NCBI GenBank assembly: GCA_016193585.1 | Contig: JACPRW010000002.1 | Location: forward strand, 1 to 61,982 | Direction: 5' to 3' | Length of the DNA: 61,982 nt | DNA from: Candidatus Aenigmatarchaeota archaeon | GTDB lineage: Archaea > Aenigmatarchaeota > Aenigmatarchaeia > GW2011-AR5 | Shown here: positions 30,509 to 56,008 of the stretch, piece by piece | Layout of the letters: each line of letters starts with the position of its first letter | How positions within the stretch are numbered: the first letter of the stretch is position 1 | The notes under the pieces: model-generated | The model's input: only the letters and a program-made list of their open reading frames with translations | What the model was told of the DNA's origin: nothing | Databases searched by the model: none | Made by a program: the position numbers and the translations under genes

Positions 30509-30527
30509 CGCGTTCACGAATGCTTTT

Positions 30528-30706: not shown

Positions 30707-30725
30707 TCTGGAATGTCATGCCTCA

Positions 30726-33443: not shown

Positions 33444-33525
33444 TGCTCTGTTCTTAAAAGTTGTCGTCCAATAGACCTTTCATGGGGGATTCTGAAAACA
33501 AACAGATTTTGGGTGACTTTGCCAT

Positions 33526-36941: not shown

Positions 36942-37503
36942 ATGGCATACGATGTCAGGCTACATCCTGCCGCAGATGATTTTTTAAAATGCTCCCGAAA
37001 CATGTTTCTGCGAGAATCAAGGAAAAATTAATAGTATGTTCTGTTGATTAGTGAACATTTCATCTTGAATGCCTTGAAAACTGCTACCTTCAGGCAGCAA
37101 ATGCAACAAGGCATTCGGGATCTTCAAAGAGCAGAGCTCTTTGAGATCTCAACTGCGGAAAGCTTCCACTTTCCGCAGTTGCAGATGCCATGCTCCACGG
37201 AAACCACCGACTGCAGTCGGTGGTATAGAGGAGCATATCATGCAGAACATACCCTATAGCAGGTTCAGGTGAAAAGTTTGGTTATTACGTGAACCTACTA
37301 TAATAAGAGCCATAAAGGAAAATCCATTCCATTATCTTGAGCTTTTGAAAGGAGAAAACGTTTACAAGCTGCGCATCGGCGGCTACAGGGAACTGATAGA
37401 CATCGATTTCAGGGAAAAAGTTCTTTACGTCCGTGTTCTCGGCCACAGAAAAAGAATTTGCAATGGTAGTTGGATATGCCCCTCCTCATGCGCTTCAAGG
37501 TAA
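36942..37503 (+). pseudogene. relE: RelE/ParE-family toxin gene split by a 260-bp MITE insertion. N-fragment 36942-37031, C-fragment 37303-37503.
   Basis: N-part MAYDVRLHPAADDFLK... C-part IKENPFHYLELLKGENVYKLRIGGYRELIDIDFREKVLYVRVLGHRK. The C-part is in a different frame. Confidence 0.6.
37040..37302. mobile_element. Composite MITE (family B) inserted in relE. Core atgccatgctccacggaaaccaccgactgcagtcggtggtatagaggagcatatcatgc...ctatagcaggttc-hairpin-tactata, plus three extra hairpins.
   Basis: Second copy of the about 115-bp core at 54161-54277. Non-coding and all-hairpin. Confidence 0.75.
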
Positions 37504-37757: not shown

Positions 37758-37944
37758 AAAGGGCGGCGCACAGATAGCTTTGGTGATTTGATGGGCGACG
37801 ACGACCGTCAGGAGTTCTTCGAGGGCAAGAAGCGGAAGAAGTACCGACGCATCTACAAGAAGGGTCACCAGCGCGTGTACAAATGACGCTCTGAGCACTT
37901 CCAGCATTCGGTGCACAGATTGCTTAAATACTTAGCGTCATGGT

Positions 37945-38038
37945 TATAGTGAACCCAGAAAAGAATCTGGATATGATTTCTGGTTCACATATAGCTCACA
38001 AGGAAGTAATATCCTGTTTATTTCCTTGTAGAGCTATA
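37945..38038. repeat. Hairpin-module repeat (gtgaacccag plus acaaggaag modules)
   Basis: Modules shared with 1838-1935. Confidence 0.8.
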
Positions 38039-38059
38039 ATGCTCAGAGGGACCACCTGC

Positions 38060-38668: not shown

Positions 38669-38956
38669 CTGATTGTGCCGCTTCTCCAAGTGCCTGTCCG
38701 AAGGGGCGCTCGGAGCGCCGTATATGATGAAGCCTTTCTGATTCCCCCTCGTGATAGCAAGGTGGTTCCGCTGCTACCAATGGTCTGCCACCGCTCTATC
38801 CGTACCGGCACGTCCCGGCTGGTAACCTGCCGGTCACTCCGGCATGGCGTCATGTTATAGTTACTTTTCCGGTCAGGTCAGCATGAAAGTCCCGGTGGAG
38901 GCAATCCCCGTGGCAAAACTCCCCCATCCTGCCGGGGCGTGAAATACTCATGAAAT

Positions 38957-39043
38957 TATAGTTCTACAAGGAAAGATTTTGGATATTATTTCCTTGTGAA
39001 CTATAGGTGAACCCAGTCATAACATATCCTGATTATTTACTGG
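38957..39043. repeat. Hairpin-module repeat truncated by a poly-G tract
   Basis: Copy of 1838-1935 ends at gattatttactgg, then gatgggggaggggggggg. Confidence 0.8.
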
Positions 39044-39169: not shown

Positions 39170-42100
39170 ATGCTTCAATCTTCTCTGCAACCATCAGCAA
39201 GTGCCAAGCGCGTTCGCCGTACATGGTGCACCCTCTTCATACCCATTGCTGTCCTGCTTCTTGTAGCGAGTTTAAAGGCTACGCCTGCAGAAGCTGGATG
39301 CGTAACAGACGGTGGCTGGTCAGCAACGTGTAATTCTGGTAACATATACGGTGGAGGGGCCCCAAATACTAACCCATGCGTCAGAAGCGCAGGTGGATGC
39401 GGTATCGCATCAGTTGAATGCGAAAATGTTTGCTTGTTTTATAATAACAACTGCGGATTAGCTTCTGGTTGCTATTGCTCTGGGGGGAGTGTTTTGCAAC
39501 CATTCTGCGGGGGGCCGAACAAATGCTATAACCCAAAAGAACGCTATGGTAAAAGTGTTTGGTGCGGCAATGGAAAATATTGCGATCAGCAATGTGAGTG
39601 CGACAATTTATGCGGCGGCGCGCCGCCGCCGGGTAGCACGTGTTCAGCCGGCTGGAAATGCAAAAGCCCGACAACGAAAGGCTATCAGAGCAGCAACTGC
39701 GCATGGTCGCAGGAACAATACTGCAACTATGGCTGCTCCAATGGAAACTGCAATTCGGCTCCAGTGACGGCAAGCAATGACGCCGCTTTCGTAGAGCAAA
39801 CCGTGCCGTCAACGATGTGCGTCGGGCAGGTAGCGGCAGTAACCGTGAAAATGAGGAACACGGGAGGGTCGATATGGAATGCAGCTGACAATTACCGGCT
39901 TGGTGCGCAGAAGCCATCCCAAGACAGCGATCGGTGGGGCAATACAAGAGCTTATCTTGTGCCGTACATCAACTACTGGAACGGCGGTGTGGACACTGCG
40001 ACGTTCAACTCGCCGGGGTCAACGTGGAACGTGGTGCCCAATGCCGCGGGCACCTATGAGTTCCAGTGGCAGATGGTCAGGGATGGCGTTGGGTGGTTTG
40101 GCCAGAAGACGAATTCGGTGTCGGTGACCGTCCTTGCTGTGCCATCGTCGGCGCCGTCGCTGACGCAGCCTGCCTATAATCAAAAATTTCCCCCTGGCAC
40201 GTCGTCGGTGACGCTGAAGTGGAGCAGCGTCGACGGCGCGACCAGCTATGACGTGCGGGTCACCGATGATAACGATGCGGCGGATACGAGCAACATCGTC
40301 GGCGCAAATAGTAACTGTGCGCCAAGCTTAGACGTATGTTACGATGGCTGGACAAACAGAGAAATGACGATTACGGTGCAATCAGGCAAGCGGTACAAAT
40401 GGTGGGTGCACGCCAAAAACCAGTGCGGTTCTGGCGGCGGGTCGGCAAACTACGAATTTCTTGTCGATACCAACAGCCCGCCGGCGGCATCCATTGCTTC
40501 AGGCGCATCAGCCGGCTGCAGCGGCACTGCTTACACGTACGCCGCATCGGGCTCTGATGTGAACAGCAACCTCTACGATATAGCGCTCTATGTGTCTCCG
40601 ACATCCAGCAGGAGCGCGACATTGATGGGCGAATGCTCATTTGCGGACACGTCATCGTACAATTGCCAGAAGTCCTGGACACCGTCAGGAGCCGGCGCCT
40701 ATTACGTGTTCGTGAACGCGTGGGACCGGGCAGGCGGCCAGTGCTCTGGTAATCCATGGTGCGATTTCGATGGCGGCTCGCTCAGCTGCGACGCAGGCAG
40801 CAACTGCGTCTATTGTACGGGCTGGTCGCGCTGCGGGTCAAGCGACCGCACGACGGTCACCATTTCCAGCAATGAGTGCTCGGCAGCAGGCGTCATCGAA
40901 TGTTCCAGCAACCAGGCGCGCACCTGCGGCAGCAATTACGACGGCGATCCGTGCCTCGAATGGAGCTCGTACACGAGCTGCGGCAGCACGCAGTCGTGTG
41001 CATCAGGTTACAGCGGCTCCTGCGCCAATTCATGCAGCACAGCATCAGGTTGCGTCAGCTGTACGCTCACCTACACGGGAAGCTCGCCGACCTGCTGCGG
41101 CAATGACGGCACGAGCGTCGGCAGTAGCGGAACATGCTGTTCAAATCTTGTCAAGTGCGACGGCGTCTGCCGCAGCCGCAGTTCGTGCAGCTGCGACGAC
41201 GGCAATGCGTGCACCACCGGCGATACCATTCAGGCTGATGGCGTGTGCCGGGGGACAGCCTACGCGGCATCAGGAACGCCGTGCGGCACCACTGCATGCG
41301 GCTGGAACCAGGTCGGCAGCGGATGCACGCGGTACTGCAACGGCGCAGGAACCTGCAACAGCTGCCCGCCATCGTGCACGGCATCGTTTGGAACGTCCAT
41401 CGAATCGGTCTGCGTCAATAACGTGTGCAGCGGCGACGTGAGCGTGCCGACAACCGGCACCATTACGGCAGAGATTACCGTCAAAAACACTGGTGCCTTT
41501 TCCCAGGCGTGGTGGTTTGTCGGCGCCGAAGCCATGAGGGTCGGCAATTATAATGACCCCTATAACTCACGGTATGGCACGTCGCTCATCACGAAGTACT
41601 ACAACGGCAAAGACGATTACGGTGACTGCACGGTGAGCGACGCATCCGACATACCGTCAGGCGGAACACGGAAAATAACCTGCACCTTCCCTGCGGCGTC
41701 ATTTGGCGCAACGAGCGGCATCGAGCGCGTCATGTTCTGGGTGCATGAGCGGGACCTTGGCCAGGACAGGAACGGCGGCTGCGCGGTATGGGACGGGAGC
41801 AGTGATACGTACTACAAAACGTGCGGGAATGCAGTCAATTGTTACAGTGCCACTCCTGTCAGTTTATCGTGCGACCAACGCTATTATAGTCTCAGGAACG
41901 AGTTGCTGTCGCAGTACGGCCAGTGCTGGCAGTATGGTCAGAATGTGTGCAATGAACTCCAGGAATGGATAGAGTCTCTTGACAAATGCTATAGTCAGGC
42001 TGACTGCGATTTATTCAGAAATCATGCCCGGTATTCGTGCGACCCCAACCGCATCCCGATACCGAGTTACGTATGCGACAAGATGCAGCTGTACGACCAG

Positions 42101-44131
42101 AGATGTTACCGGAGCCGGTCGAATGGGTGCTGGGGCGGCTCGTGGTGGGACGACGCGCTCGCAACTGCAGCGCCTGCGGCGGTCAGGGTTTCGCTGATCG
42201 ACTGCACCGGTTCAGGCGGAGCGACTGGCCCCGGCGGTTACTGCTGCAGCGGCCTGACGAAATGCAGCGGCGACGTCTGCAGAAGCATCTGTACCGGCGA
42301 TTCCTGCAATGACGGCAGTCTGTGCACGTTCAATGACCGCATACAGGCTGACGGCTCGTGCAGGGGAACCATACACTCCTGCCCGGACGTGAAATGCGGG
42401 AGATTCGTGTGCGACGGCAACGGCGGGTGCACCGGCTCATACGTGAGCGTATGGTGCACCGACGACAATGCGTGCACCGCCGGCGATTTCTGCAGTGAAG
42501 GCTCCTGCCGGGCGACGGCCTACACCTGCCCTCCGCAGTCGTGCCCTGCTGATTCCTGCGCAAGCTCGACGTGGTACTCGACGTGGTACGATTACCCTGC
42601 GTCGTGCACGCGAAGCTGCCTCGGCAACGGCGCGTGCAGCGTCTGCGATTGCACGGCACAAACAACCGCGTGCACTGCCGGCAGCGGGTGCTGCGTTGCG
42701 CGGTGCTCAGCGGGCAGCGGGTGCTCGACAGCAGCAGGCTCGTGCGCTGATCTGTGCAGCGCGAATACGCTCACCATCGGACAAAGCTGCAGCGGGTGCG
42801 GGGCGAATGGCGCTGCAGGGAATTGTGGCGGCGGGACAAGTTATACGTGCGACGCGACATCGCATACGCTCTGTCAGCAATACTCATGCGGCGGCAGCAC
42901 GTACTCCTGCACGAATGCCGGCGGAAGCTGGTCGTGGAGAACAGCAACAGGCTGCAATGACAACAATGCATGCACGTACAACGACGCATGTGCAAGCGGC
43001 TCGTGCCGGGGAACGTCCTATGCGTGCAGCGACGTCTGCACCATGAACACGCTCACCATCGGCAGGGGATGCAACGGCGACGGCACGTGCGGCAGCGGCA
43101 CGTCCTATGCATGCGATGCCACAACGTACACGAGCGGCCAGCAGCTGACGTGTGGCGGTCTGCAGAAGTGCTGCACCTATGCCTCCGGCAGCTGGCAGTG
43201 GTCGTCATCGTGCGACAGCAATGCGCCATCCAGTGGCTGGACAGGCAGCAGCTTCGGGGCATATGATAATGACGGTACAGCATCAGCAACCGTATCATGC
43301 GCCGACAGCGGCAGCGGGCCGAAGGACGCGTGGGTCGCCAAAAAAGTCAATAATGCATGGCAGTACTACTGCGCTGACGGAACATGGCAGACGGACTCCG
43401 ACTGTAATAGCCACAATGGCATCGGCTTTTTATCATCCACGTATGCGTGCACCTCAACCGGCGCTGACGGACACCGTCTTCAATGTGCTGTCCGGTGCAG
43501 GGACAATGCGCTTAACGTTGATGCAAGCTGGGATTACACGACAGACTCATTAGTGGATACGTCTGCGCCAACATCTGGCTGGACAAGCAGCACCTTTGGG
43601 ACGTATGACACAGATGGCAGCGCTTCAGCTGTCACGTCGTGCAGTGATTCAGGAAGCGGAATCAGGGACGTATACGTAGCTTGGAGAGTCAATGGACTCT
43701 TTGCCAATTATGGTTATCAGGCATATCCCTATACCTGCACCTCAACCGGTTCTAATGGCCAGTATATTCAATGCGCTGTCCGGTGCAGGGACAATGCCGG
43801 CAATTTAGATGATAGCTGGGATTACACGGCTGGGACAATAGTGGACACTGCTCCTCCGTCCACCAGTTCTTCATCTTCCGTCACCGCCAACCAGTACAAC
43901 TGGTACACCTCGAACGTCGCGGTCACGCTGGCGTGCAGCGACACCGGCGGCAGCGGCTGCGGGGCGACGAAGTACTGCACCGATACGGCGGGCACGTGCA
44001 CGCCGACGACGACGTACAGCGCCGCGGTCACCATCAGCAGTCGAGAACCCTGCTCATCGACAAGACCGCGCCATCCGGCGTTTCGGTATCGAATACCAAC
44101 GGCTATTGGTCAGCAACAACCATACCCGTAA
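39170..44131 (+). CDS. Giant secreted Cys-rich adhesin-like protein, N-terminal 1,653 codons. Signal peptide, Cys-rich modules, CARDB/DUF11-like and FN3-like domains, four CxDxNxCT..D..C..G.CRG repeats, Ig-like repeats.
   Basis: Signal peptide MLQSSLQPSASAKRVRRTWCTLFIPIAVLLLVASLKATPAEA. About 150 Cys. The track frame ends in junk after AVTISS because of a frameshift at about 44040. Confidence 0.8.
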   Translation: MLQSSLQPSASAKRVRRTWCTLFIPIAVLLLVASLKATPAEAGCVTDGGWSATCNSGNIYGGGAPNTNPCVRSAGGCGIASVECENVCLFYNNNCGLASGCYCSGGSVLQPFCGGPNKCYNPKERYGKSVWCGNGKYCDQQCECDNLCGGAPPPGSTCSAGWKCKSPTTKGYQSSNCAWSQEQYCNYGCSNGNCNSAPVTASNDAAFVEQTVPSTMCVGQVAAVTVKMRNTGGSIWNAADNYRLGAQKPSQDSDRWGNTRAYLVPYINYWNGGVDTATFNSPGSTWNVVPNAAGTYEFQWQMVRDGVGWFGQKTNSVSVTVLAVPSSAPSLTQPAYNQKFPPGTSSVTLKWSSVDGATSYDVRVTDDNDAADTSNIVGANSNCAPSLDVCYDGWTNREMTITVQSGKRYKWWVHAKNQCGSGGGSANYEFLVDTNSPPAASIASGASAGCSGTAYTYAASGSDVNSNLYDIALYVSPTSSRSATLMGECSFADTSSYNCQKSWTPSGAGAYYVFVNAWDRAGGQCSGNPWCDFDGGSLSCDAGSNCVYCTGWSRCGSSDRTTVTISSNECSAAGVIECSSNQARTCGSNYDGDPCLEWSSYTSCGSTQSCASGYSGSCANSCSTASGCVSCTLTYTGSSPTCCGNDGTSVGSSGTCCSNLVKCDGVCRSRSSCSCDDGNACTTGDTIQADGVCRGTAYAASGTPCGTTACGWNQVGSGCTRYCNGAGTCNSCPPSCTASFGTSIESVCVNNVCSGDVSVPTTGTITAEITVKNTGAFSQAWWFVGAEAMRVGNYNDPYNSRYGTSLITKYYNGKDDYGDCTVSDASDIPSGGTRKITCTFPAASFGATSGIERVMFWVHERDLGQDRNGGCAVWDGSSDTYYKTCGNAVNCYSATPVSLSCDQRYYSLRNELLSQYGQCWQYGQNVCNELQEWIESLDKCYSQADCDLFRNHARYSCDPNRIPIPSYVCDKMQLYDQRCYRSRSNGCWGGSWWDDALATAAPAAVRVSLIDCTGSGGATGPGGYCCSGLTKCSGDVCRSICTGDSCNDGSLCTFNDRIQADGSCRGTIHSCPDVKCGRFVCDGNGGCTGSYVSVWCTDDNACTAGDFCSEGSCRATAYTCPPQSCPADSCASSTWYSTWYDYPASCTRSCLGNGACSVCDCTAQTTACTAGSGCCVARCSAGSGCSTAAGSCADLCSANTLTIGQSCSGCGANGAAGNCGGGTSYTCDATSHTLCQQYSCGGSTYSCTNAGGSWSWRTATGCNDNNACTYNDACASGSCRGTSYACSDVCTMNTLTIGRGCNGDGTCGSGTSYACDATTYTSGQQLTCGGLQKCCTYASGSWQWSSSCDSNAPSSGWTGSSFGAYDNDGTASATVSCADSGSGPKDAWVAKKVNNAWQYYCADGTWQTDSDCNSHNGIGFLSSTYACTSTGADGHRLQCAVRCRDNALNVDASWDYTTDSLVDTSAPTSGWTSSTFGTYDTDGSASAVTSCSDSGSGIRDVYVAWRVNGLFANYGYQAYPYTCTSTGSNGQYIQCAVRCRDNAGNLDDSWDYTAGTIVDTAPPSTSSSSSVTANQYNWYTSNVAVTLACSDTGGSGCGATKYCTDTAGTCTPTTTYSAAVTISSREPCSSTRPRHPAFRYRIPTAIGQQQPYP

Positions 44132-44600
44132 CGGTCAGCCGGGGCACCGACGCCCAGTCAGGCATGTCAGCAACCAATGCAGATTACCTCCTTGAGGTCG
44201 CCTCATCGGCACTGTCCGGAGGAACATGCCCCAGCTTTGGCGGCTATGCCGATGCCGGTGTCCCGGAAACAGCAGCTGCCACCAGCTACACCTATACCGG
44301 CACCTCGGGTAATTGTTATAAATTCCGCTACACCGTGGCGAATGCTGCGGGCTTGCCAATAACCTATACAGGAACCGATGTTACGAAAATCGACACGGCA
44401 GTTCCGGTAACTACGCCGTCGCTCTCTGGAACTGATGGCTGGAAAAGCTGGGGCGACTGGTACACCTCGAACGTCGCGGTCACGCTGGCGTGCAGCGACA
44501 CCGGCGGCAGCGGCTGCGGGGCGACGAAGTACTGCACCGATACGGCGGGCACGTGCACGCCGACGACGACGTACAGCGCCGCGGTCACCATCAGCAGTGC
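44042..44600 (+). CDS. Middle segment of the same giant gene, readable only in frame 1 (SRTLLIDKTAPSGVSVSNTNGYW ... YSAAVTISS)
   Basis: Part of track ORF 43933-44736. Bounded by two frameshifts at duplicated junctions. Confidence 0.6.
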
Positions 44601-46759
44601 AGTCGAGAACCCTGCTCATCGACAAGACCGCGCCGGTGTACCAGAGCTACGACGTGAGCGGCTGCGGTTACAAAACTGCCAACACGTGCTGGGTCAAGGC
44701 AGGCACCACGACGTACCACTATACCCGCCACACTGATGCCCACGCGACGCCCGCGTACCAGTACCTCACCTTCACCAAGGACGGCTGCGCGCCGAACAAC
44801 TGTGCTGCGAACAACGAAGTTAAATCCTACGTGTATGTCGACAGCGGCGCGCTCACCGACTGGATGGTGAACAATGCGTTCCTCGATATCACTGCCACAG
44901 CGTGCCAGACTGCCGGCGGCTGCACGGGCACCGACGTCACTGAGCAATGGTCGGTGTCAGCCGGCAATGCCGAAGGCGACTTCACCGTATGGACGTTCCT
45001 CTATGACGCCGCCGGGAACGGCATCGGCTACACCAACACCGGCTGGTCGTACAAGATTGACAGTACCCTGCCGTCAGCATCAATCAGCATCAACAATGGC
45101 AACGCACGGACGGTATCCTCGTCCGTGACGCTCACCCTCGCGTACGCCGACGCGCGCTCCGGCGTCAAGGACTGCCGGTACAGCAACGACGGTTCTGTAT
45201 GGAGTTCGTGGGAAAACTGTGGCACGACCAGGTCATGGACGCTCTCCGCAGGCGACGGCACGAGGGCGGTGTATTATCAGGTTCGCGATAATGCAGAAAA
45301 CGTGCAGCAAACGAGCGACACCATCGTGAAAGTGAGTTGCTCAGGCTACACCATCAATGGCGTGTGTGATAGGGATTGCGGCGGCCACGCCTCGTGCCAG
45401 GGCGACACGCCGGGGGCAAACCTCGTGCATTGTAACCTGGGAGCCAGGTCATATTTCGTTGACACGTGTACCGCCACCTGCCAGCCGGTTGACATGGATG
45501 CGGTGTGCAAAAGCGACTTGTCCCATGGCTCATGCACCGCGGACCGCAGCTGCGGCGGCATCACTGCAGGCCAGTGCGGTTCGTCGTCAATGTTATGCTC
45601 AAGCAGTTGCACCGCGGTATCGTGCCCGGGTGGCTGTTCCGGTGGCGTGTGCGCGGGCGGCGACGTGGTCTCGGCAATCACCGTGCCGTCGACGAGCACG
45701 TGGAAGCGAGAGAGCTTCACCGCCACGGCGACCGACACGCCTGTGGCATATCTCGCCACGAACACATGCCAGTACAGGGTCGAAAGCCTTGACGGGTCGG
45801 AAAACGTTGTTCATGATACGGGATGGCGCACCAGGTCCTGCAATGGCAACATCCCGTCCATAACATTGGGCGCTACCGGCGACTGCCGCGTCGAGGGCAG
45901 CGCCAGGTGCCGCGTCACGGTGCGGGCGAGCAACATCGCTGGCAGGCAGGGCACGGCGGACACGAAGACGTACAGCGTCGACTGGACAGCGCCAACGTAT
46001 GCAAGCTACGAGTTGTCAGGCTGCGACTACACGAGCGGCACCACCTGCTGGGTCAAGAGCGGCACGGTGACGACGCACACCATCCGCCACACCGATGACC
46101 GCGCCACGCCGTTGCAGCAGTACCTGTCGCTCGCATGGAATGGCTGCAATCCAATTTCATGCGCGGGGTGGGAAATCAGAAGTTATGTAAATGTTGACAC
46201 CGGCGCATTTGTTGATGATCCTCTATTGCAGAACAACAACTACCTCGACATCACAGGCACGACGTGCACCGAATCAGGCGGCTGCACGGGCACCGACGTC
46301 ACTGAGCGATGGTCGGTGTCAGCCGGCAATGCCGAAGGCGACTTCAAGGTCTGGACGAAGATGATTGACCACGCGGGGAACGGCGACACGTGGGCGGATA
46401 CGGGGAAGTGGCTCAAAGTCGATGCAGTAGCGCCCAGCCTGAGCACTGTGGTAACGCCTGAAAGGCTGTGGTACAACGGCCAGGTAACCATCGCACCGAC
46501 GGAATCAGACAGCCGTTCCGGCATCGCGTCGTGCCAGTACCAGGTGACGGATGGCATCAACGACGCGACCGACGGCATCTGGCGCACGCGCACCTGCGGC
46601 TCTCCGGTCGCCGTGAGCGTCGGCGCATCAGGCTTGTGCGCCGCCCAGGGCACCAACGCATGCACCGTCACGCTGCGTACGCTGGACAATGTGGGGAACA
46701 GCCAGCCGGTAACACGGAGCTTCAGTGTCGACTACACGGCACCGGCGTCGAGTTCGTAA
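44435..46759 (+). CDS. C-terminal 774 codons of the giant adhesin-like gene (meaningful from about 44598). Ig-like/Big-like repeats with Y..DxAGN motifs.
   Basis: RTLLIDKTAPVYQSYDVSGCGYK... Repeated about 100-aa modules ending in DxTxP. Same frame as 39170-44131. Confidence 0.75.
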   Translation: MAGKAGATGTPRTSRSRWRAATPAAAAAGRRSTAPIRRARARRRRRTAPRSPSAVQSRTLLIDKTAPVYQSYDVSGCGYKTANTCWVKAGTTTYHYTRHTDAHATPAYQYLTFTKDGCAPNNCAANNEVKSYVYVDSGALTDWMVNNAFLDITATACQTAGGCTGTDVTEQWSVSAGNAEGDFTVWTFLYDAAGNGIGYTNTGWSYKIDSTLPSASISINNGNARTVSSSVTLTLAYADARSGVKDCRYSNDGSVWSSWENCGTTRSWTLSAGDGTRAVYYQVRDNAENVQQTSDTIVKVSCSGYTINGVCDRDCGGHASCQGDTPGANLVHCNLGARSYFVDTCTATCQPVDMDAVCKSDLSHGSCTADRSCGGITAGQCGSSSMLCSSSCTAVSCPGGCSGGVCAGGDVVSAITVPSTSTWKRESFTATATDTPVAYLATNTCQYRVESLDGSENVVHDTGWRTRSCNGNIPSITLGATGDCRVEGSARCRVTVRASNIAGRQGTADTKTYSVDWTAPTYASYELSGCDYTSGTTCWVKSGTVTTHTIRHTDDRATPLQQYLSLAWNGCNPISCAGWEIRSYVNVDTGAFVDDPLLQNNNYLDITGTTCTESGGCTGTDVTERWSVSAGNAEGDFKVWTKMIDHAGNGDTWADTGKWLKVDAVAPSLSTVVTPERLWYNGQVTIAPTESDSRSGIASCQYQVTDGINDATDGIWRTRTCGSPVAVSVGASGLCAAQGTNACTVTLRTLDNVGNSQPVTRSFSVDYTAPASSS

Positions 46760-47235: not shown

Positions 47236-47439
47236 TATAGTGAAACAAGAAAATAATACCGACATATTACTTCTTGTTTCACATATCCCCAGAAAGCAGA
47301 GCTTTCTGGGATCTCGAAGAACCTCTGTTCTTCGCAGATAGCAAACAAGGAAGTCATACAAGGTGGATTCCATGAATCCACCTGTACAGGAGAATCTTCG
47401 ATTCTCCTCGTATCGTGTTTATTTCCTTGTATTGCTATA
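47236..47439. repeat. Family A variant with two extra inserted hairpins (cagaaagcagagctttctgg, cgaagaacctctgttcttcg) and the 56-nt inner insert
   Basis: Shares module 1 and 2 ends with 8209-8304. Lies in the promoter region of the 46867-47187 gene. Confidence 0.8.
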
Positions 47440-47509
47440 ACATCAATATCAGCATCAGTATCAATAGCAGTGATTAATAGTATTTAAATCTTTACATTCA
47501 TGTAAAGAT

Positions 47510-47791: not shown

Positions 47792-47972
47792 GGGTCTTCG
47801 TATGACACTCCCGGTTGAAGTATGGAGAAATGCGCAGCATATGTCCTTAGAGGCTGCGCATTTCTCATCTAGCGAATTGCGTTTTCACAGGTCATAAGCA
47901 ACGCAATTCTCTATAACAGTCTTTCAAAAATCCCCTAATTATGGCATTCAAGTTTCAAAAGCGATCATTGAT

Positions 47973-48335
47973 TTGGAGAAATACACTCCGCTCAAACGTA
48001 AAGACATTAACGAACAGACAGTAAGGATAGATGATAAAACGGACGAGAATTTGGTAGAATTAAGTCCACTGCAGTCCAAGCGTCAAGCAAGTATAAGCTT
48101 CTCTGATTCCAGCAATCAACAATGGCGTATCGATATCCAGATCCGCAACGATAATGAGGCACAACCTCCAGAGATTAATGTTGAATGTGTGGTCAGGTGT
48201 GGTGCAAGAAGAAGACCTTTCACCATTCCCAGGAGAGCATTGAAAACAGTGCATCGTACTACACAGCACGGCGGTATACTGGTTGGTCTGAGCTTCATGA
48301 ACAAATCCATTGCCATAGGAACAGAACTGCGCTAA
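47973..48335 (+). CDS. Hypothetical protein
   Basis: 120-aa ORF. No motif. Confidence 0.35.
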   Translation: MEKYTPLKRKDINEQTVRIDDKTDENLVELSPLQSKRQASISFSDSSNQQWRIDIQIRNDNEAQPPEINVECVVRCGARRRPFTIPRRALKTVHRTTQHGGILVGLSFMNKSIAIGTELR

Positions 48336-48745
48336 TATCTAAAGTGTCTTATTTGGAATAGATCGAACCAAATACACATTGACGCGTCTTGAACAGCCAC
48401 AATTCTTCACCCCACACCGAAATCCATATGAACTTCACCGGCGAATACATGAAGTACGTACGCTCCGCACGCCGGACGCCGCAGATATAACTTCTGTGCC
48501 GCCGCACGAGGCTCTGTTCAGATGCCCGTCGACGCTTTGTGAGCTTTTTATCCGTTCCGGGAACGAAAGTAGTATGGAGTATGTTTCGCGCCGCCTGCAG
48601 GCGCTTGTGCCGAACGCGGGCGCATATCAGGGGAGCGATGCTGTTCACTATGCTCCGGGTGGCATCGTCTATGGCAGCGCTGGCGGCCCGGCAAAGCCGT
48701 ACCCGGGAAAGGAGTCCGGCGAGTCCAGGAAATGCTGCTGACGTG

Positions 48746-48868
48746 ATGCACATGGACGAGCTGCTCTGCAACACCTGCGGGAAGCCGATGAAGACGCGCG
48801 TCATGAAGGCGTTCGGCAGCGAGATGGAAGTGCCGTACTGCCCGCGCTGCAGCGAGAGCAAGGATTGA
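48746..48868 (+). CDS. Possible zinc-ribbon mini-protein (40 aa)
   Basis: CNTCGKP...CPRCSE, a C-x2-C/C-x2-C pair. Confidence 0.25.
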   Translation: MHMDELLCNTCGKPMKTRVMKAFGSEMEVPYCPRCSESKD

Positions 48869-48924
48869 ACCAAGTGCATGCAGCAGGGCAAAAGCTTTAT
48901 GTTGTGCCATTATGAATACATAGC

Positions 48925-49308
48925 ATGAAACCCGGAAAGCCCGGAAGAGAAAGCATATGGCACTCAATTGCTCTGGCTCTTATTCTTGTACTGCTCGTTC
49001 TGGTCGGTGTATTCCTCATCAATCAAAATACCATGCCGGCTGCAGGTGGTCCGGACATTTCATGCGCTGCCGACGAAGACTGCAGGCTCGAAGTGCCGGA
49101 AGCCCTTCTGCAGTGCCTGCCGTGTGACCCCTACAATTGTGCATTCATCGATGCCGGCAGCGCTGCTGTCATCGCCGTGAATACTGCATGGGGACCTTCG
49201 TGCCCACCGCGTGAACCCCAAATGTGCATCCAGTGCATAGGCGGCATCGAGATGAACGGCTACACGGCGAAATGCGTGAATGGCCAGTGCGTCAAGCTGA
49301 AGGGATAG
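48925..49308 (+). CDS. Membrane-anchored Cys-rich small secreted protein
   Basis: N-terminal TM (IALALILVLLVLVGVFLI) and a 10-Cys ectodomain. Confidence 0.5.
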   Translation: MKPGKPGRESIWHSIALALILVLLVLVGVFLINQNTMPAAGGPDISCAADEDCRLEVPEALLQCLPCDPYNCAFIDAGSAAVIAVNTAWGPSCPPREPQMCIQCIGGIEMNGYTAKCVNGQCVKLKG

Positions 49309-49355
49309 ATAGCAGTGGTCTTAAGATTAAGAGCGTTTCCTCTGTAAAGTTCAGC

Positions 49356-49925
49356 ATGAGCAACGACACTACATGCCTGATAGTTTTTCTCAACGGCACC
49401 AGCAGCTCTGGCAAAACGACCATAGCCGGGGAGCTTGCAGAAAGGCTGCCTGATTTTGAGTACTTGGCGATAGATGCGTACTGGCAGCGTGACGAACGGC
49501 TGGCTGGACAGCTGCAACAGAACAACACAGAAGGCATTCTCTCAGCAGCCACTGACGTGGTCTATGCGTTTCACCGCTCGATTGCATCGCGTACCGCAGC
49601 AGGGCGGAGTACCATCGTCGACCATGTCCTTGATAATCCTGCGTTTGCTGAAGGCTGCGGAACGACGCTGGAGCCGTACAAAGTTTTGCTCGTCGGCGTC
49701 TATTGCCCGCTCGATGTAGCAGAGTCACGGGAAAGAGAACGCGGCGACCGGATCCCCGGTACAGCGCGCTACCTGTTTCCGCTTGTCCATGAAAGCAAAA
49801 CATACGATGTTACCGTTGACACGTCAGTCCTGTCGCCATCGCAGTGCGCAGGCCAGATAGCGTATGCAGTCGATAGAAAACTCTATGCAGATAGAACTAG
49901 CGCTGAAAAATTTGGCGTTCGGTAA
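49356..49925 (+). CDS. Chloramphenicol-phosphotransferase-like P-loop kinase (CPT family)
   Basis: LIVFLNGTSSSGKTTIAGELA P-loop typical of the CPT family. Confidence 0.65.
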   Translation: MSNDTTCLIVFLNGTSSSGKTTIAGELAERLPDFEYLAIDAYWQRDERLAGQLQQNNTEGILSAATDVVYAFHRSIASRTAAGRSTIVDHVLDNPAFAEGCGTTLEPYKVLLVGVYCPLDVAESRERERGDRIPGTARYLFPLVHESKTYDVTVDTSVLSPSQCAGQIAYAVDRKLYADRTSAEKFGVR

Positions 49926-49952
49926 TGTGCTTTTTTCTTTCTCAATAGCACA

Positions 49953-50495
49953 TTACGCCAGCACAGCAACAATAAACTGCCCTGCTGCGCCAAAAAGGAG
50001 CCAGTTGAACAGCACGTTCGTTAGTGCATAGGGCAGGAACCTGCTGAGGTTCTGCCTCCCGACCAGCAGGGTGAACATAATGTTAATGACATTCAACGCG
50101 AGCGTGACGGTGGTGCCGGCAGCCGCAATGCCGCCGCCGAGCGAGGGTGCGAGAAATCCTGCGATCACGTAGCCGGGAATGACCCACAGCACGTATTCGC
50201 CGATGAACTGCCCTGCGAGCACGTGAAATAGTATAAGCACCAGTCCCACCATTGCACCGGCGACAGGCCCGTGCGTGACGCCGGTAATGACCGTTGCGAA
50301 CGTGACGAGCTCGATGCCGACGCTCCGCACGCGGAGGAAGCTGATGACAGCGGAAACCGCGAAGCTGAGCAGCATGAGCACGCCGACAGCGACGAGGTTG
50401 CTGAGCGCAAGCACGACGAAGAGCAGCGCGCCGGCAAGTGCTACCAGCTTGAGCGAACTGCGCCCGGTGATGAACCGGTACAGGAAGCCTGCCAT
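49953..50495 (-). CDS. Multi-TM membrane protein
   Basis: 180 aa with 5-6 hydrophobic segments. Confidence 0.5.
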   Translation of the reverse strand: MAGFLYRFITGRSSLKLVALAGALLFVVLALSNLVAVGVLMLLSFAVSAVISFLRVRSVGIELVTFATVITGVTHGPVAGAMVGLVLILFHVLAGQFIGEYVLWVIPGYVIAGFLAPSLGGGIAAAGTTVTLALNVINIMFTLLVGRQNLSRFLPYALTNVLFNWLLFGAAGQFIVAVLA

Positions 50496-50529
50496 ACCCG
50501 TAGTTTGGAAGAAAAGCTTAAGAGCCCTG

Positions 50530-51129
50530 TCATTGCCCTTCTGTTTTCAATGCGCGACCGAACCCCTTAAGCGCGGTTCGCGCAGACTGTCTGCGGGCGG
50601 TTATCACCAGCTCGTTGCCGTCACGCACAATGCTCACCGATGCCGGTTGCAGCTGCGCTGCATACGGTCTGAACGCTTCGGTGAAGTCGTCGACAATGTC
50701 CGGCGTTTCATCTTCGAGAACCGGTATCCGCAGCTCATGTCCGTTGAGGCGCGGCGTTCCGAGGCGGTAGCCAGTGTCAACAACACGTTTTCCAAATAAC
50801 ATACCATATCCACCCGTACCGGGGCACAGCGTAGCAATGACCACCGGAAGCTCGATGCCGACGCTTCTGAAGACATCGCACGTGACTTCGTGCAGCCCCT
50901 CGCCGTACGCTCTCATCTGCAGTGGTGTGCCGCTGCGTGCTGCGTCGGTGAATGCCCTGTACGCATCTCCGACGGTGAGCGGACAGTGCTGGCCGTTCAA
51001 ATATCGGCAAATGACATTCCGCGCCCTGGTACCATGCGGGTGTGCTTCCCACGGAAGCTCTTGAAGATGGGTTCGTGACAGCTCATCGGTCGGCATATCG
51101 TGGACATACGCGTGCGGCATACCCGTCAT
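50530..51129 (-). CDS. Hypothetical protein
   Basis: 199-aa ORF with host codon usage. Confidence 0.45.
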   Translation of the reverse strand: MTGMPHAYVHDMPTDELSRTHLQELPWEAHPHGTRARNVICRYLNGQHCPLTVGDAYRAFTDAARSGTPLQMRAYGEGLHEVTCDVFRSVGIELPVVIATLCPGTGGYGMLFGKRVVDTGYRLGTPRLNGHELRIPVLEDETPDIVDDFTEAFRPYAAQLQPASVSIVRDGNELVITARRQSARTALKGFGRALKTEGQ

Positions 51130-51289
51130 TTACTATGCAACATATTAAAGATAGGAGGAGTATGAAGAGCTAAAACAATGTACGCATGCAGGGATGTGCG
51201 GTCGTGTCGCTCCCGCATGCGCTCCGTAGTACGCAAAAAGTACGATACCTTTATATAGAGCGCCAGGCAAGAGTAGATTGGGTGCAGCG

Positions 51290-52720
51290 ATGCATACACG
51301 AGCGGTACTTTTTGTCGTATTTGTGGCACTGTCTTCTCCTGTGTTCGCTTTTGACATGAACATTTCCTCCGAATCGGTCATCGTCCCGCTCGGCACCACG
51401 AAAGACGTCATGGTAACCGTCACCAGTTCTGTCGAGGACCGCTTCGTCCTCACGGTGCTCGGCGAGAAGCCATGGATGGTGCTTTCCAGCCAGCAGGTTA
51501 TGACGGAAGCCGGCGTTCCGGCAGCAGCGCGCGTGTATTTCACGCCGCGCGACCCCACCATGTTCGGCCTGTACAAGGTGCGACTCGTCGCGTTCTCGCT
51601 CACGACCGGGGAGAAGCAGGAAAAGGATGTCTATATCTCTGTTGTCCGCGGCGACGGCGTCTTTGCCGAGAAGGTCGTGCTCACCGGCGACTGGTACCCG
51701 ACCGGTACGCTGGACGCAGCAGTGCACGTGAAGAACTACGGCACGTCGCAGCTGCAGAACCTCAAGGTCGTGTACAAGGTCTACTCGCCATCCGGAACAC
51801 TGTACGCTTCCGAGCAGTCGCTCGAAAAGCTCGGACCCGAAGAGGCAGCTGTGGTGCGGATGGTATATTATATCCCTGAAAACACCGCGGCAGGCGACTA
51901 TACGGTCGACGCGACGCTCATGTACCAGAACCGGGAGTCGAAAGTGACCAGCACGTTCATGGTTGACGAAAAAGGCGTCGTCGTTGTTGCAGGGGAGGAT
52001 GCGCCCTATCCGCTCGGCTTCGGGAAACGCATCAGCGTGAGGAACAAAGGCAATGTCGTCGCGGAAACGACCGTCAGGGAACCGCTCACCAGATTCGACG
52101 GCTACTTCTTCCAGGGAACGCCGCCCTCGTACATGAGCGATACCATGTTCATATGGGAAGTCAAGAATCTGGTGCCCGGCGAGCAGCGCATCATAGCGTA
52201 CCACGTCGATTATTTGCCGTTCATCATCTTTCTCTTCTCGGTAGCGGCAGCAGGCTGGGTCGTGCTGTATAAATTGAAGACCGTCCGCATACGGAAGTAC
52301 ATCATCCAGAAGAAGCATATCGACGAGGGCGAGGAATTCACCGTCGGCATCGATGTCAAGAACTCGTCGGGGGCGGAAGCCAGGGAAATCGTCGTGAGGG
52401 ATTTCGTGCCTTCCATCTTCGAGGTGAAGGATTACGAGGGCCCGAAACCGCAGAAGAAGAAATCCGAGCACGGCACCGAGCTGACGTGGAAGATCGGCGA
52501 GATGTTCAACCGCGAGGAGCGCGTGCTCACGTACCGCATCGTGCCGGTGTTCGGCATCAACGGCGAGGTCAAGCTGCCGCCGGCGATGGCTCTATTCAGA
52601 ATCGGCACGCGCGATATCGAGAACCACTCCTTCCCGACCATGGTCGGCGTGCATGTCGGCAGGCACCCGACGCTCGAGGAAGCGTTCGAAACGGAGAAGA
52701 AAAGGAAGAGGAAGGGCTAA
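51290..52720 (+). CDS. CARDB/DUF11-domain surface protein with signal peptide and one TM near residue 300
   Basis: Signal MGAAMHTRAVLFVVFVALSSPVFA. Repeated V.V.N.G.. beta-sandwich motifs. TM YLPFIIFLFSVAAAGWVVLY. Confidence 0.6.
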   Translation: MHTRAVLFVVFVALSSPVFAFDMNISSESVIVPLGTTKDVMVTVTSSVEDRFVLTVLGEKPWMVLSSQQVMTEAGVPAAARVYFTPRDPTMFGLYKVRLVAFSLTTGEKQEKDVYISVVRGDGVFAEKVVLTGDWYPTGTLDAAVHVKNYGTSQLQNLKVVYKVYSPSGTLYASEQSLEKLGPEEAAVVRMVYYIPENTAAGDYTVDATLMYQNRESKVTSTFMVDEKGVVVVAGEDAPYPLGFGKRISVRNKGNVVAETTVREPLTRFDGYFFQGTPPSYMSDTMFIWEVKNLVPGEQRIIAYHVDYLPFIIFLFSVAAAGWVVLYKLKTVRIRKYIIQKKHIDEGEEFTVGIDVKNSSGAEAREIVVRDFVPSIFEVKDYEGPKPQKKKSEHGTELTWKIGEMFNREERVLTYRIVPVFGINGEVKLPPAMALFRIGTRDIENHSFPTMVGVHVGRHPTLEEAFETEKKRKRKG

Positions 52721-52861
52721 TTCTTGGAACGTTTCGGCCGCACGTGCACCATGTCGCCGTGCTTGCTGCCGCTACGGGATTTTCGTACCACTCGTTCGAG
52801 GCCATGTAAGAAAATTTCCATACTTCAAAGTAGGAAAAAGTTTAAATATACATTCATACAA

Positions 52862-53131
52862 AAGAGCAGTATGCACATCAAAAGGGCGGTTGGCGAAAAG
52901 GGGCAGGTCGTGGTGCCCAAGGACATACGGGAGCATCTAGGTCTCAGGCCCGGGACGAATGTGATATTCGAGGTCACAGGGAAGGACGTCGTCATCAAGG
53001 CGGAAAAAGACCCGAAAGATTTCGTGGAAGACTTTTGCAACGTCGTCCCGAAGAGCAAGCGGAAGAAGCTGGGCATAAAAAAAATCAAGCAGCTACTCGA
53101 TGAGCAATATGAAGAAGAGCTTATACGTTGA
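52862..53131 (+). CDS. vapB: AbrB/SpoVT-type antitoxin (VapB-like)
   Basis: GEKGQVVVPKDIREHLGLRPGTNV swapped-hairpin motif. Confidence 0.65.
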   Translation, partial: KSSMHIKRAVGEKGQVVVPKDIREHLGLRPGTNVIFEVTGKDVVIKAEKDPKDFVEDFCNVVPKSKRKKLGIKKIKQLLDEQYEEELIR

Positions 53132-53531
53132 CGCGAACGTGTTCATTGTCGCTGGCGTGTACCCCCAGGAAAGCCCCGAATTCAAAGCAGCGAAAAAACT
53201 GCTCTATGCGGTTTCCAGTGGCGAAGCCGAAGCTGCGACATCTCTGCTGACGTGGGATGAGCTTGTCTGGGTCGTCAGGCGAATGGCCGGCAATGAAGCA
53301 GCCGCGGAAGAAGGCAAACGGTTCCTTGAAATCCCGAACATGAAATTCCTTGGAGTGACTGAAAACATCATCCGGAAAGCGCAAAATATTACTGAGCGTT
53401 ACAACCTGAAACCCCGGGACGCTATCCACACGGCAAGCGCCATAGTGAACAATGCCGGCAGCATCGTCAGCGATGACGCTGACTTTGATGCCGTCAGGGG
53501 ACTGAAGCGAATTGCACTGGAGCGCGCGTAG
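53100..53531 (+). CDS. vapC: PIN-domain toxin (VapC-like)
   Basis: LYVDANVFIVAG N-terminus. Conserved D/E/D spacing. IVSDDADF. Confidence 0.65.
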   Translation: MSNMKKSLYVDANVFIVAGVYPQESPEFKAAKKLLYAVSSGEAEAATSLLTWDELVWVVRRMAGNEAAAEEGKRFLEIPNMKFLGVTENIIRKAQNITERYNLKPRDAIHTASAIVNNAGSIVSDDADFDAVRGLKRIALERA

Positions 53532-53534
53532 CAG

Positions 53535-54119
53535 CTATTTCTTCACATTCTGCCACACGCCGATGACGTTGCCCTCGGTGTCCATGACGCGCGCGTAGAG
53601 CCCGATGTCGCCCACCTGCATCTTCGGCATGACGACCTTGCCGCCAGCCTGCTGCACCTTCTTCAGTGCAGCGTCGAGGGAATTGACGTTCACCACGACT
53701 ACCGGCCCTTCCTTCGCCATGCGCTTCATCATGCCGCCGTTGATCGAGCCAGCCTCGACCGGCATGTTCTTTTTGTCCGTTGCAGTGGTGGTAATCAGAT
53801 AATATTCTGGTCCGGGCATCGGCGCCCTGCTTATCTGCCAGCTGAAGACGCTGCTGTAGAACTGCTGTGCACGAGCGACGTTGTCCGCAGGGATTTCGAA
53901 GTGCACGACCTTGTCAGGCTTTGCCGCTGCCGCGCTCATGGCAAGGAACCCGTCCATCTTCTTCGCCATCCGCTTCTTGTCCTCTTCGGTCATCTTACTG
54001 AGGAGCGCCTTGTGCGCCTTCGCTGCGTGGCTGAACATGGCTGTTTTTACCTCGTCTGCTGTAGTGCCGGTCGCTACAAAGTCGCATTTCCAGCCCAGAT
54101 CGCTGCATTGCAACTGCAT
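53535..54119 (-). CDS. DUF1059 metal-binding domain fused to a VOC/glyoxalase-like domain
   Basis: MQLQCSDLGWKCDF...HAAKAH (DUF1059), then a VOC core (VHFEIPADNVARAQQFY ... GNVIGVWQ). Confidence 0.55.
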   Translation of the reverse strand: MQLQCSDLGWKCDFVATGTTADEVKTAMFSHAAKAHKALLSKMTEEDKKRMAKKMDGFLAMSAAAAKPDKVVHFEIPADNVARAQQFYSSVFSWQISRAPMPGPEYYLITTTATDKKNMPVEAGSINGGMMKRMAKEGPVVVVNVNSLDAALKKVQQAGGKVVMPKMQVGDIGLYARVMDTEGNVIGVWQNVKK

Positions 54120-54160
54120 GGAAGTTCACCTCTCGTGTTGCAGAAAATTGAACGCGGAAC

Positions 54161-54277
54161 ATGCCATGCTCCACGGAAACCACGACTGCAGCCGGTGGTA
54201 TAGAGGAGCATATCATGCTGAACATACCGTATAGCAGGTTCGAACGAAAAGTTCCAGTAGTATTCGAACCTACTATA
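54161..54277. repeat. Second copy of the family B MITE core
   Basis: About 95% identical to 37179-37302 except for the terminal hairpin, which differs in sequence but not in structure. Confidence 0.75.
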
Positions 54278-54333
54278 AGTGATTATTCGTGTGCACTTTT
54301 AAATAATGCAGCACACTAGACATATGATTGATT

Positions 54334-54531
54334 CCCGCGATAGTTTGGATTCAGAAGGAATCCGAACTGCCGTGGGGCGAAAACCCGCGATAGTTTGGAT
54401 TCAGAAGGAATCCGAACTGCCGTGGGGCGAAAACCCGCGATAGTTTGGATTCAGAAGGAATCCGAACTGCCGTGGGGCGAAAACCCGCGATAGTTTGAGC
54501 TTGTGCTCGAACTGCCGGGAAGAGGCATTTT
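54334..54531 (+). repeat. Tandem array: three exact 50-bp units plus one degenerate 48-bp unit. Each begins with CCCGCGATAG, the first 10 nt of the downstream tRNA, and carries a ggattcagaaggaatcc hairpin.
   Basis: Unit cccgcgatagtttggattcagaaggaatccgaactgccgtggggcgaaaa at 54334, 54384 and 54434. Degenerate copy at 54484. No spacers. Confidence 0.8.
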
Positions 54532-54651
54532 CCCGCGATAGCTCAACGGTAGAGCACCTGGCTGTAGCCAAGCACCGACGGTGCTACGGAATCCAGCCTG
54601 TGCTTTCAAGCAGTCACCAGGGGGTTCTGAGTTCAAATCTCAGTCGCGGGA
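54532..54651 (+). tRNA. Intron-containing tRNA, probably tRNA-Tyr(GUA), with a roughly 48-nt intron at 37/38
   Basis: Acceptor CCCGCGA/TCGCGGG. D arm GCTCAACGGTAGAGC. Anticodon stem CCTGG/CCAGG with loop CT-GTA-G|intron|A. T arm CTGAG-TTCAAAT-CTCAG. Discriminator A. A 4-bp helix CTGT/GCAG flanks the putative splice bulges. Confidence 0.7.
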
Positions 54652-54712
54652 TGGGGAAGAAGGGTTCAGTTCTCCGACCTGTTATATAAAAGACGGGAAT
54701 GAGGAGGTGCAT

Positions 54713-56008
54713 ATGAACCAACCTGAGAAAATAGATGTCCACGGGTACGAAAGGCAGATAGAAATCCAGAGGAGTCTGCTGGAGAAAGCCCAAATAAAGG
54801 ATGACAACAGGCAGCTGATAAAGGACTTCATCAACTTCTGCGAGGTCGACCCTAAGGTAGGTCTGTCAAGGGTGCGTCTCTACTATTACACCCTCAGGCG
54901 TCTCGCCGAACTCACTGACAAAATTTTCAGGGAAATGGCCGAAGTGGACATAATTAACCTACTTGCCAAGCTTAAGGAGTACAAAACCTGCATCTGCAAG
55001 AAGAAGCAGAAAAACAGGGCTTCCTGCAAAGGCATGAAATGCCAAGGCAAAAGGTATTCTGAACAGTCTCTGCTAGACTTTAGGAAGGCCATAAGCAAAT
55101 TCTGGAGGTGGCTCTATTTTGACCAGTATTGCGGGCAAGCTCCGCCGCAAATAAGACGCATAAAGTGCGGTGCTCTCAGCAACAAGAAAGAACCTGATGT
55201 ATACAGCAAAGAGGAAATTAAGGCTCTCATAGACGGCATGACAACAATCAGGGACAAAGCCTTTTTCAGCTGCCTCTACGACCTGCAGTGCAGGGTATCT
55301 GAGCTTCTGTCACGGCAGATAAAGCATTTACGCTACACCGAAGGCGGAGACATCCAGATACTGATTGAAGCTGAAAAAACACAAATCAGCCATTGGGAAA
55401 CGCTCTTTGAGTCTGTTCCGCAGTTCGTGTCATGGCAGCGTCTTCATCCTATGCCATTCAATCCAAACGCACCCCTATGGACTGTAATGAAAAAATCAGG
55501 AAACATAGTCCCTCTCCACTATCCATTGGTTAGAAAGATATTCCTCAATGCGTGCAAAAGGCAGAATATAAGGCTGGGAAAGAGAAACAGCATACACATG
55601 ATACGCAAGAGCAAGGCTACTCACGACATGGCTGACGGTATACCTATAACCTTCATCGAGAGCAGGGGGAGCTGGACAAAAGGCAGCAGAGCACTCCAGA
55701 ATTGTTATCTTTCAGTTATCCAGAAGGACAAGGACAATGCATACAAAAAGAAGTACGGAATACCAGTAAACAACGGGCACGAAATTCCAATGGAACTCAA
55801 GACATGTACCCGATGCCACGTATACTTGGAAAACGCTGCGAAATTCTGCCATACGTGTGGGTTTCCCACAGACAGGTCTATAATGGCAAAGATGCAGGAA
55901 ATAAGCAAAGCTACAGCAGAACTGGTAGACAAAGACATGCTTTCAGAAATGATAAAGAAAATTGTCATGGCTGAACTGGAGAAGGATAAGGGTGCTAAAA
56001 GTGACTGA
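54713..56008 (+). CDS. Tyrosine recombinase/integrase with a C-terminal zinc ribbon
   Basis: Catalytic-box residues: R in LYDLQCRVSELLS, HMIRKSKATH, RGSW, Y in QNCYL. CTRCH...CHTCG ribbon. SD-like GAGGAGGTG before the ATG at 54713. Confidence 0.7.
   Translation: MNQPEKIDVHGYERQIEIQRSLLEKAQIKDDNRQLIKDFINFCEVDPKVGLSRVRLYYYTLRRLAELTDKIFREMAEVDIINLLAKLKEYKTCICKKKQKNRASCKGMKCQGKRYSEQSLLDFRKAISKFWRWLYFDQYCGQAPPQIRRIKCGALSNKKEPDVYSKEEIKALIDGMTTIRDKAFFSCLYDLQCRVSELLSRQIKHLRYTEGGDIQILIEAEKTQISHWETLFESVPQFVSWQRLHPMPFNPNAPLWTVMKKSGNIVPLHYPLVRKIFLNACKRQNIRLGKRNSIHMIRKSKATHDMADGIPITFIESRGSWTKGSRALQNCYLSVIQKDKDNAYKKKYGIPVNNGHEIPMELKTCTRCHVYLENAAKFCHTCGFPTDRSIMAKMQEISKATAELVDKDMLSEMIKKIVMAELEKDKGAKSD

Follow-up and report, generated by a model that had tools for sequence, protein, structure and literature searches.

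Two breaks of reading frame at a duplicated, truncated module in a giant putative surface-protein gene of an Aenigmarchaeota contig

How should one read a giant gene whose protein makes sense from end to end only if the reading frame changes twice? The question is raised by a gene at 39170-46759 in contig JACPRW010000002.1 of a Candidatus Aenigmatarchaeota archaeon (assembly GCA_016193585.1), where each change of frame falls in one of two copies of a truncated module, here called R1 and R2. All coordinates and counts refer to the forward strand of the whole 61,982-nt stretch that was analysed, the window. A first-pass annotation of this DNA had offered a pseudogene, a mis-assembly, and phase variation or recoding as explanations, without ranking them; the first two are still live, while recoding did not hold up. 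We think it a little more probable than otherwise that a gene of ~2,530 codons was recently broken by a real microhomology deletion, that the deletion was copied to both R modules, and that a 5-nt slip followed. The feature is an ordinary recent inactivation or a local assembly error and involves no new mechanism.

A repeat that interrupts the reading frame

On sequence comparison, the region is best described as one predicted gene in the order X-R-U-R-Y, with its modules arranged as in relatives. The gene and its parts are as follows.

39170..46759 (+): conceptual single giant surface-protein gene of ~2,528 codons in three frame segments, from the open reading frames (ORFs), their translations and single-ORF relatives
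39170..44041 (+): segment X, frame 2, 1,624 sensible codons, with an N-terminal signal/transmembrane (TM)-like stretch, Cys-rich regions and immunoglobulin (Ig)-like modules
43899..44072 (+): R1, copy 1 of the truncated OmpL47-like module, encoding WYTSNV...AVTISS, the junction and (S)RTLLIDKTAP, identical to R2 except for 5 nt
44037..44041 (+): junction 1, a single GCAGT, where sense passes from frame 2 to frame 1; a deletion breakpoint, ~64 nt short of the 79-aa module of relatives
44073..44455 (+): module U, frame 1, with 51-54% amino-acid identity to giant proteins of candidate phyla radiation (CPR) and DPANN contigs
44456..44634 (+): R2, copy 2 of the truncated module, 179 nt, recognised by its identity to R1, its GC content at third codon positions (GC3) and the missing core
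44594..44603 (+): junction 2, GCAGTGCAGT, where sense passes from frame 1 to frame 2; a deletion breakpoint, ~59 nt short; frame 1 read onward stops at 44734-44736
44603..46759 (+): segment Y, frame 2, 718 codons plus stop, comprising two Cys-containing modules of the Y type, an OmpL47-type domain that is intact (match below threshold) and a stretch rich in Cys

The direct repeat consists of a long arm of 143 nt (43899-44041 and 44456-44598) and a second arm of 36 nt (44037-44072 and 44599-44634), each 100% identical between its two positions. The sole difference between R1 (174 nt) and R2 (179 nt) is that the pentamer GCAGT occurs once in the former (44037-44041) and twice in the latter (44594-44603). 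The first-pass annotation had reported a recurring block of 142 bp and a 5-nt difference between the junctions; the recurrence and the difference both stand, the latter being one against two pentamers, but the block measures 143 nt and is followed by 31 more identical bases past the pentamer tract. No other exact repeat in the window reaches even 141 nt, which makes the long arm the longest; it is well past chance expectation. The double tract GCAGTGCAGT was found once in the window. Unique sequence starts 36 nt past the junctions, with ATCCGGCG on the U side and GGTGTACC on the Y side, and passage from junction 1 into U is marked by ATCAGCAGTCGAGAACC, 36 nt and ATCCGGCG, and passage from junction 2 into Y by ATCAGCAGTGCAGTCGAGAACC and GGTGTACC.

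Frame 2, read from ATG 39170, is sensible up to ...YSAAVTISS at 44041, after which 30 junk codons lead to the TAA at 44129-44131. Sense is taken up in frame 1 as SRTLLIDKTAPSGVSV... and runs through the second WYTSNV...TISS, beyond which this frame turns to junk and stops at 44734-44736. Frame 2 then regains sense as SRTLLIDKTAPVYQSY... and is open to the end at 46759. The path from frame 2 to frame 1 and back, with open, sensible stretches of 1,624, 187 and 718 codons, is the one traced in the first-pass annotation, which had sense lost near 44040, continued in frame 1 and returned to frame 2 up to 46759. The shifts had also been called compensating, which is correct arithmetically only (-1, then +1); frame-2 stops between the junctions bar any real compensation. 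The codons at the junction sites are ATC AGC AGT CGA (junction 1) and AGT GCA GTC GAG (junction 2), and direct reading of the sequence places either junction in frame with 0 or 3 GCAGT units.

Codons missing at the junctions

We then compared the R copies with full-length modules. Word-index protein searches returned, beyond the NCBI products of this gene, only relatives at 26-43% identity; each time they failed on a 100% identical NCBI product (P0009 once, P0001 once), and the protein collection held no partial gene products, so that its negatives are weak evidence. Scans of GTDB genomes and JGI metagenomes gave loci at 35-44% identity only. An exhaustive HMMER search yielded the useful relatives P0080 (852 aa, one complete R-Y unit) and P0081 (1,429 aa, two R-Y units). 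Among the metagenomic loci, L003 and L004 carry an R-like module with a U-like module directly after it (U identity 51-54%), L004 in an ORF of 6,507 aa, and L002 has U-like, R-like and Y-like modules in one 3,998-aa ORF. Relatives with the same modules in single ORFs or proteins thus span 852-6,507 aa.

When the R copies of the window were aligned with their counterparts in P0080 and P0081, which share 49-53% identity with R1, a single gap appeared, one block at the junction of 22 columns in R1 or 20 in R2. The missing block is (P/D/N)EGTNY(V/I)RY(R/Y)STDNAGN.E.T, that is, EGTNYvRYrSTDNAGNqEsT, which includes the STDNAGN motif; it is kept in three paralogous modules of the giant gene and in L002-L004. 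Measured from W to P, the module spans 79 aa (237 nt) in relatives and 173 nt in R1, a loss of 64 nt, and the loss in R2 is 59 nt. The first-pass annotation had treated the junctions as pure frameshifts; 20-22 conserved codons are gone at exactly these points in both copies, which makes the junctions deletion breakpoints and not shift sites.

Next to the gap, ISS (left) and QSRT (right) line up with native residues, and therefore the left GCAGT (A/GC AGT, the slash marking the edge of the pentamer) and the right GCAGT (G CAG T/CG) are native codons, in phases that differ by one. As judged from this alignment, the single-unit junction matches the product expected of slippage between GCAGT pentamers 64 nt apart, with 21 codons and 1 nt lost, and the double-unit junction would be the same product plus one GCAGT unit. 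The loss is also visible with the OmpL47-type beta-barrel profile NF047446.1 (68 positions; cut-off 40 bits), to which all matches here are below the cut-off. Full-length comparators match it at E 4e-7 to 1e-4, the R-like modules of L003 and L004 over positions 1-60 and 3-59 and the paralogues in Y over 3-68 and 42-68, while the R of the window, even when frame-repaired, gave no match up to E 10. As in proteins of this type, the paralogous and relatives' R-like modules match the profile, and many modules are joined by D-x-T-A-P linkers; unlike them, both R copies are without the C-terminal third of the domain.

In line with a pseudogene, the frame is broken relative to intact homologues, with premature stops at 44129-44131 and 44734-44736, and conserved, structurally required residues are lost in both R copies. 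No further decay was seen elsewhere in the giant gene, all three segments being open and sensible, and therefore the disruption is either very recent or not real.

Codon usage bears on how both copies came to carry the same lesion. Both R copies have a GC3 of 0.97 and Y one of 0.82-0.85, against 0.42-0.60 in the tail of X (43250-43898) and 0.53-0.60 in U; elsewhere in the gene it is 0.35-0.50 at the N-terminus and 0.6-0.85 in the middle. This mosaic suggests that the gene was built from modules with different histories. R1 is an island of R2/Y-type codon usage, which fits copying of R2 onto the R1 position. Sequence comparison showed the two R-Y units of P0081 to be far closer to each other than either is to the R of the window, which suggests that intragenic homogenisation is usual in this family.

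From these observations we infer which event followed which, that slippage was at work, and that the consensus reproduces DNA actually carried by the dominant genotype. The core of one R module would have been removed by replication slippage, or by some other event that microhomology mediates, between GCAGT pentamers ~64 nt apart, and the loss of 21 codons and 1 nt would have shifted the frame. Intragenic gene conversion or duplication would then have brought the deleted module to the other R position; the 100% identity of R1 and R2, and their R2/Y-like codon usage amid low-GC3 flanks, would hold because the deleted module was copied. One R copy would afterwards have gained or lost one GCAGT unit. 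Translation from the start would end at 44131 and yield a truncated product of ~1,650 aa, within which U and Y would no longer be expressed. Microhomology and a perfect tandem duplication are typical hallmarks of real mutations.

Slipped-strand (microhomology) deletion pseudogenes in repetitive surface-protein genes are the closest parallel. Shared with them are the short direct repeats GCAGT...GCAGT ~64 nt apart with one unit left, the loss of frame, the premature stop, and a modular adhesin-like family with intragenic homogenisation. The present case differs in that both module copies, which are 100% identical but for one unit, carry the same lesion, and in that no further decay is visible.

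Several points weigh against a real disruption. Over the remaining ~7.6 kb the correct frames are fully open, and conservation of U is good; the gene is otherwise intact, and therefore it can only have been inactivated very recently, if at all. A real origin also calls for three rare events at one site: a deletion, its copying and a change of 5 nt. Moreover, the window represents a contig of a short-read metagenome-assembled genome (MAG), and the junction lies 2 nt past position 141 of its sole exact repeat of at least 141 nt. A scaffolding join is probably located on the GCAGT tract, and if the sequence is real, the chance of a junction so near position 141 is ~3%.

Weighing the alternatives

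The foremost alternative is a local assembly or scaffolding error, with the real gene intact or only the unit count wrong. We regard this as distinctly less probable than not, and still a serious contender. The GCAGT count, or less likely the whole missing core, would then be an artefact of a join or of a merged heterogeneous population. In truth there might, for example, be 3 units in each copy, which amounts to an in-frame deletion of 18 codons, the next contig having lost 10 and 5 nt to over-trimming; or each copy might have 2 units, with a single over-trim of 5 nt. The default k list of MEGAHIT ends at 141, and the anomaly sits at the only exact repeat that reaches this length. If the pipeline is as we suppose, the 143-nt arm necessarily breaks a k=141 graph, and contigs then end at repeat position 141, inside the first GCAGT. 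The window contains no Ns, and therefore joins were closed without gaps. Both junctions are derivable from a tract of 2 or 3 units through over-trims in multiples of 5 nt, no damage was seen elsewhere in the giant gene or in any other gene checked, and the position of the junction and the three rare events needed by a real origin count for an error as well. The presumed pipeline is that of the groundwater study PRJNA640378, the source of many Aenigmarchaeota MAGs with JACP/JACQ accessions, in which assembly with MEGAHIT v1.2.9 at default parameters was followed by the scaffolding function of IDBA-UD. The MAG of the window and the SRR121133xx-134xx runs appear to come from this study. Logan assemblies of SRR12113431, SRR12113418, SRR12113390 and SRR12113428 hold contigs 100% identical to 47886-54215, which therefore represent the same population sequenced many times, and the 146-aa 3' end of the giant gene (from 46319, a k=31 contig boundary that was predicted and then confirmed) is present in 10 Logan samples; no contig record encoding the 1,653-aa ORF or P0001 was found in the contig index. 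Local assembly errors are reported to be frequent in IDBA-UD output, also inside repeat-containing protein genes and in the form of a wrong repeat number (Chen et al. 2020, PMC7111523). The present case resembles these in being a short-read MAG, probably assembled with MEGAHIT and the IDBA-UD scaffolder, in which the anomaly is confined to the sole repeat above the probable largest k, within a protein-coding gene with internal repeats. It differs in that the junctions resemble genuine mutational products and not arbitrary unsupported sequence. A perfect tandem duplication accounts for the 5-nt difference, and microhomology is seen at the deletion junction, both being typical of real mutations; blind trimming would give such junctions only if its errors were exact multiples of 5. 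A de Bruijn assembler is unable to skip 59 nt over a 5-nt repeat, and with 2 units in both copies the gene is still broken. Two variants were rejected: blind trimming of a full-length module would need a coincidence of ~1/1000 to leave a clean GCAGT tandem, and chimeric re-pairing of the repeat exits yields X-R(x2)-Y and a U-R(x1) cycle that are likewise out of frame.

The remaining alternatives take the sequence as real and functional. We consider it improbable that (GCAGT)n at each truncated module is a hypermutable contingency switch, with full length at 0 or 3 units and an OFF or truncated state at 1 or 2. The number of units does differ between otherwise identical copies, 3 or 0 units restore the frame at either junction, and the gene encodes a predicted surface protein and is intact elsewhere. 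Simple-sequence-repeat contingency loci are known as tetra- or pentanucleotide tracts in surface-protein genes of Haemophilus and Neisseria, where, as here, the copy number of a short tandem unit sets the reading frame; known loci usually have at least 5-6 units. The tracts found here, 1 unit at 44037-44041 and 2 at 44594-44603, are far under the lengths that give useful slippage rates, GCAGTGCAGT occurs just that once in the window, no ON state was observed, and the tract sits on a deletion scar in a damaged module whose core is missing, so that even an ON state would yield a defective module. That the tract at both scars works as a contingency switch in a DPANN archaeon, turning U and Y on and off, is more improbable still; if true, one gene would give short, medium and full-length surface proteins within an episymbiont population. 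Very little speaks for two separate genes as annotated, at 39764-44131 and 44597-46759, both independent and functional with U non-coding. The NCBI annotation does list two hypothetical proteins, but the first product would end in 30 junk residues, and the second would start at a GTG in the junction, mid-module and without a signal peptide. In frame 1, U reads open over 187 codons, and it shares 51-54% identity with modules of relatives, in which these modules are fused in one ORF. Least credible of all is programmed ribosomal frameshifting, -1 at junction 1 and +1 at junction 2, which would make a full-length protein from the present sequence with the junction peptides TISS-(x)-SRTLLIDKTAPSG and TISSA-SRTLLIDKTAPVY. 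The shifts cancel arithmetically, all three segments are open and sensible, and adjacent segments of one protein lie in different frames, as in dnaX, prfB, IS3 transposases and the archaeal fucA1 of Saccharolobus solfataricus. In contrast to such systems, no slippery heptamer X XXY YYZ was found within 43980-44060 or 44540-44620, no homopolymer of at least 5 in 43850-44700, and no stop codon or known +1 motif at either shift point. Downstream RNA structure is not significant against dinucleotide shuffles (minimum free energy z -1.50 and +0.50), and the sequences downstream of the two junctions are identical for 31 nt only. The shift points coincide with the 20-22-codon deletion. The first-pass annotation had held that the same frameshifts fixed in an ortholog would favour recoding; L002, L004, P0080, P0081 and P0092, which are only 35-53% identical, read R-U or R-Y in a single frame.

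Two further candidates were tried and discarded. A diversity-generating retroelement was rejected: no reverse transcriptase was found among 23 ORFs or gene segments scanned against Pfam, and the repeats are identical and not A-mutated. The footprint of a miniature inverted-repeat transposable element (MITE) or another insertion was rejected as well, R being native coding sequence homologous to modules of relatives at the same position.

The general significance of the locus is small. If the recent disruption is real, the recently truncated alleles of fast-evolving, modular genes for surface proteins are joined by another, here from an uncultured population of Aenigmarchaeota that was met in at least 10 sequencing runs. 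Should it be an artefact, the public annotation, with two 'hypothetical proteins' of which one starts in the junction, misrepresents a single protein of ~2,530 aa. For annotation in general, frame breaks at exact repeats near the k-mer limit of an assembler need a check of the reads before they are interpreted biologically.

The encoded protein and the rest of the contig

From its sequence, the product is most likely a Cys-rich surface protein that carries Ig/OmpL47-like modules and is either secreted or anchored by its N-terminus. Segment Y has thousands of homologues through its OmpL47-type domain, and P0080, P0081 and P0092 match the Y module too; searches of the module sequences against Pfam and PDB brought no usable result. 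NCBI splits the gene into the hypothetical proteins HYY37_01185 (P0001) and HYY37_01190 (P0009, MBI2971014.1), the second of which starts at GTG 44597, within junction 2. The start of HYY37_01185, GTG 39764, leaves out 198 in-frame upstream codons from ATG 39170. These omitted codons (39170-39763) hold the sole signal/TM-like segment of the gene (RRTWCTLFIPIAVLLLVASLKATPAEA) and a Cys-rich region, and therefore the deposited HYY37_01185 is probably N-terminally truncated.

Module U is 51-54% identical among this archaeon, a Candidatus Peribacteria (CPR) MAG and other metagenome contigs, while the rest of the proteins is ~30% identical. U-like loci lie at 10790-11110 and 12746-13090 of L001, 10001-10400 of L002, 1700-2030 of L003 and 10832-11190 of L004. 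From these comparisons, U appears to be a well-conserved adhesin-type module common to episymbiotic bacterial and archaeal lineages.

The neighbours of the giant gene are intact-looking, ordinary chromosomal genes, among them Met- and Val/Ile-type tRNA synthetases, PEP carboxylase, pyruvate kinase, TatD, aRF1 and inositol-1-phosphate synthase. Ten housekeeping genes on the contig were tested, 7 of them with end-to-end profile coverage, and none gave any sign of a frame break.

Intergenic spaces along the contig abound in hairpin-forming repeat families of the form TATAG...stem-loop...CTATA, 50-185 nt long, in both orientations and with some copies 98-100% identical. They could be a repetitive extragenic palindromic (REP)/MITE-like element or a shared regulatory or terminator hairpin, and gave no Rfam match. 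The giant gene has a copy close by on each side, upstream at 38941-39043 and downstream at 47289-47473, and the contig begins inside a further copy. The TATAG...CTATA repeats are at the following positions.

45-229, 463-566, 1822-1924, 5536-5748, 8208-8306, 13877-13979, 22610-22852, 25287-25484
29034-29268, 30527-30711, 33524-33775, 37208-37309, 37942-38040, 38941-39043, 47289-47473, 54183-54284

ARAGORN reported no tRNA anywhere in the window and missed both genes that Rfam detected. One of these, at 4676-4804 (129 nt), was seen by Rfam only, and an intron is presumed from its length. The other, an intron-containing tRNA (Rfam 54532-54651), is directly preceded by a perfect 50-nt tandem repeat of 3.3 copies (54334-54497) and overlaps the start of an ORF of the phage integrase family (54581-56008). 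The stretch 54334-56008 may be an integrated element with a duplicated att-like sequence.

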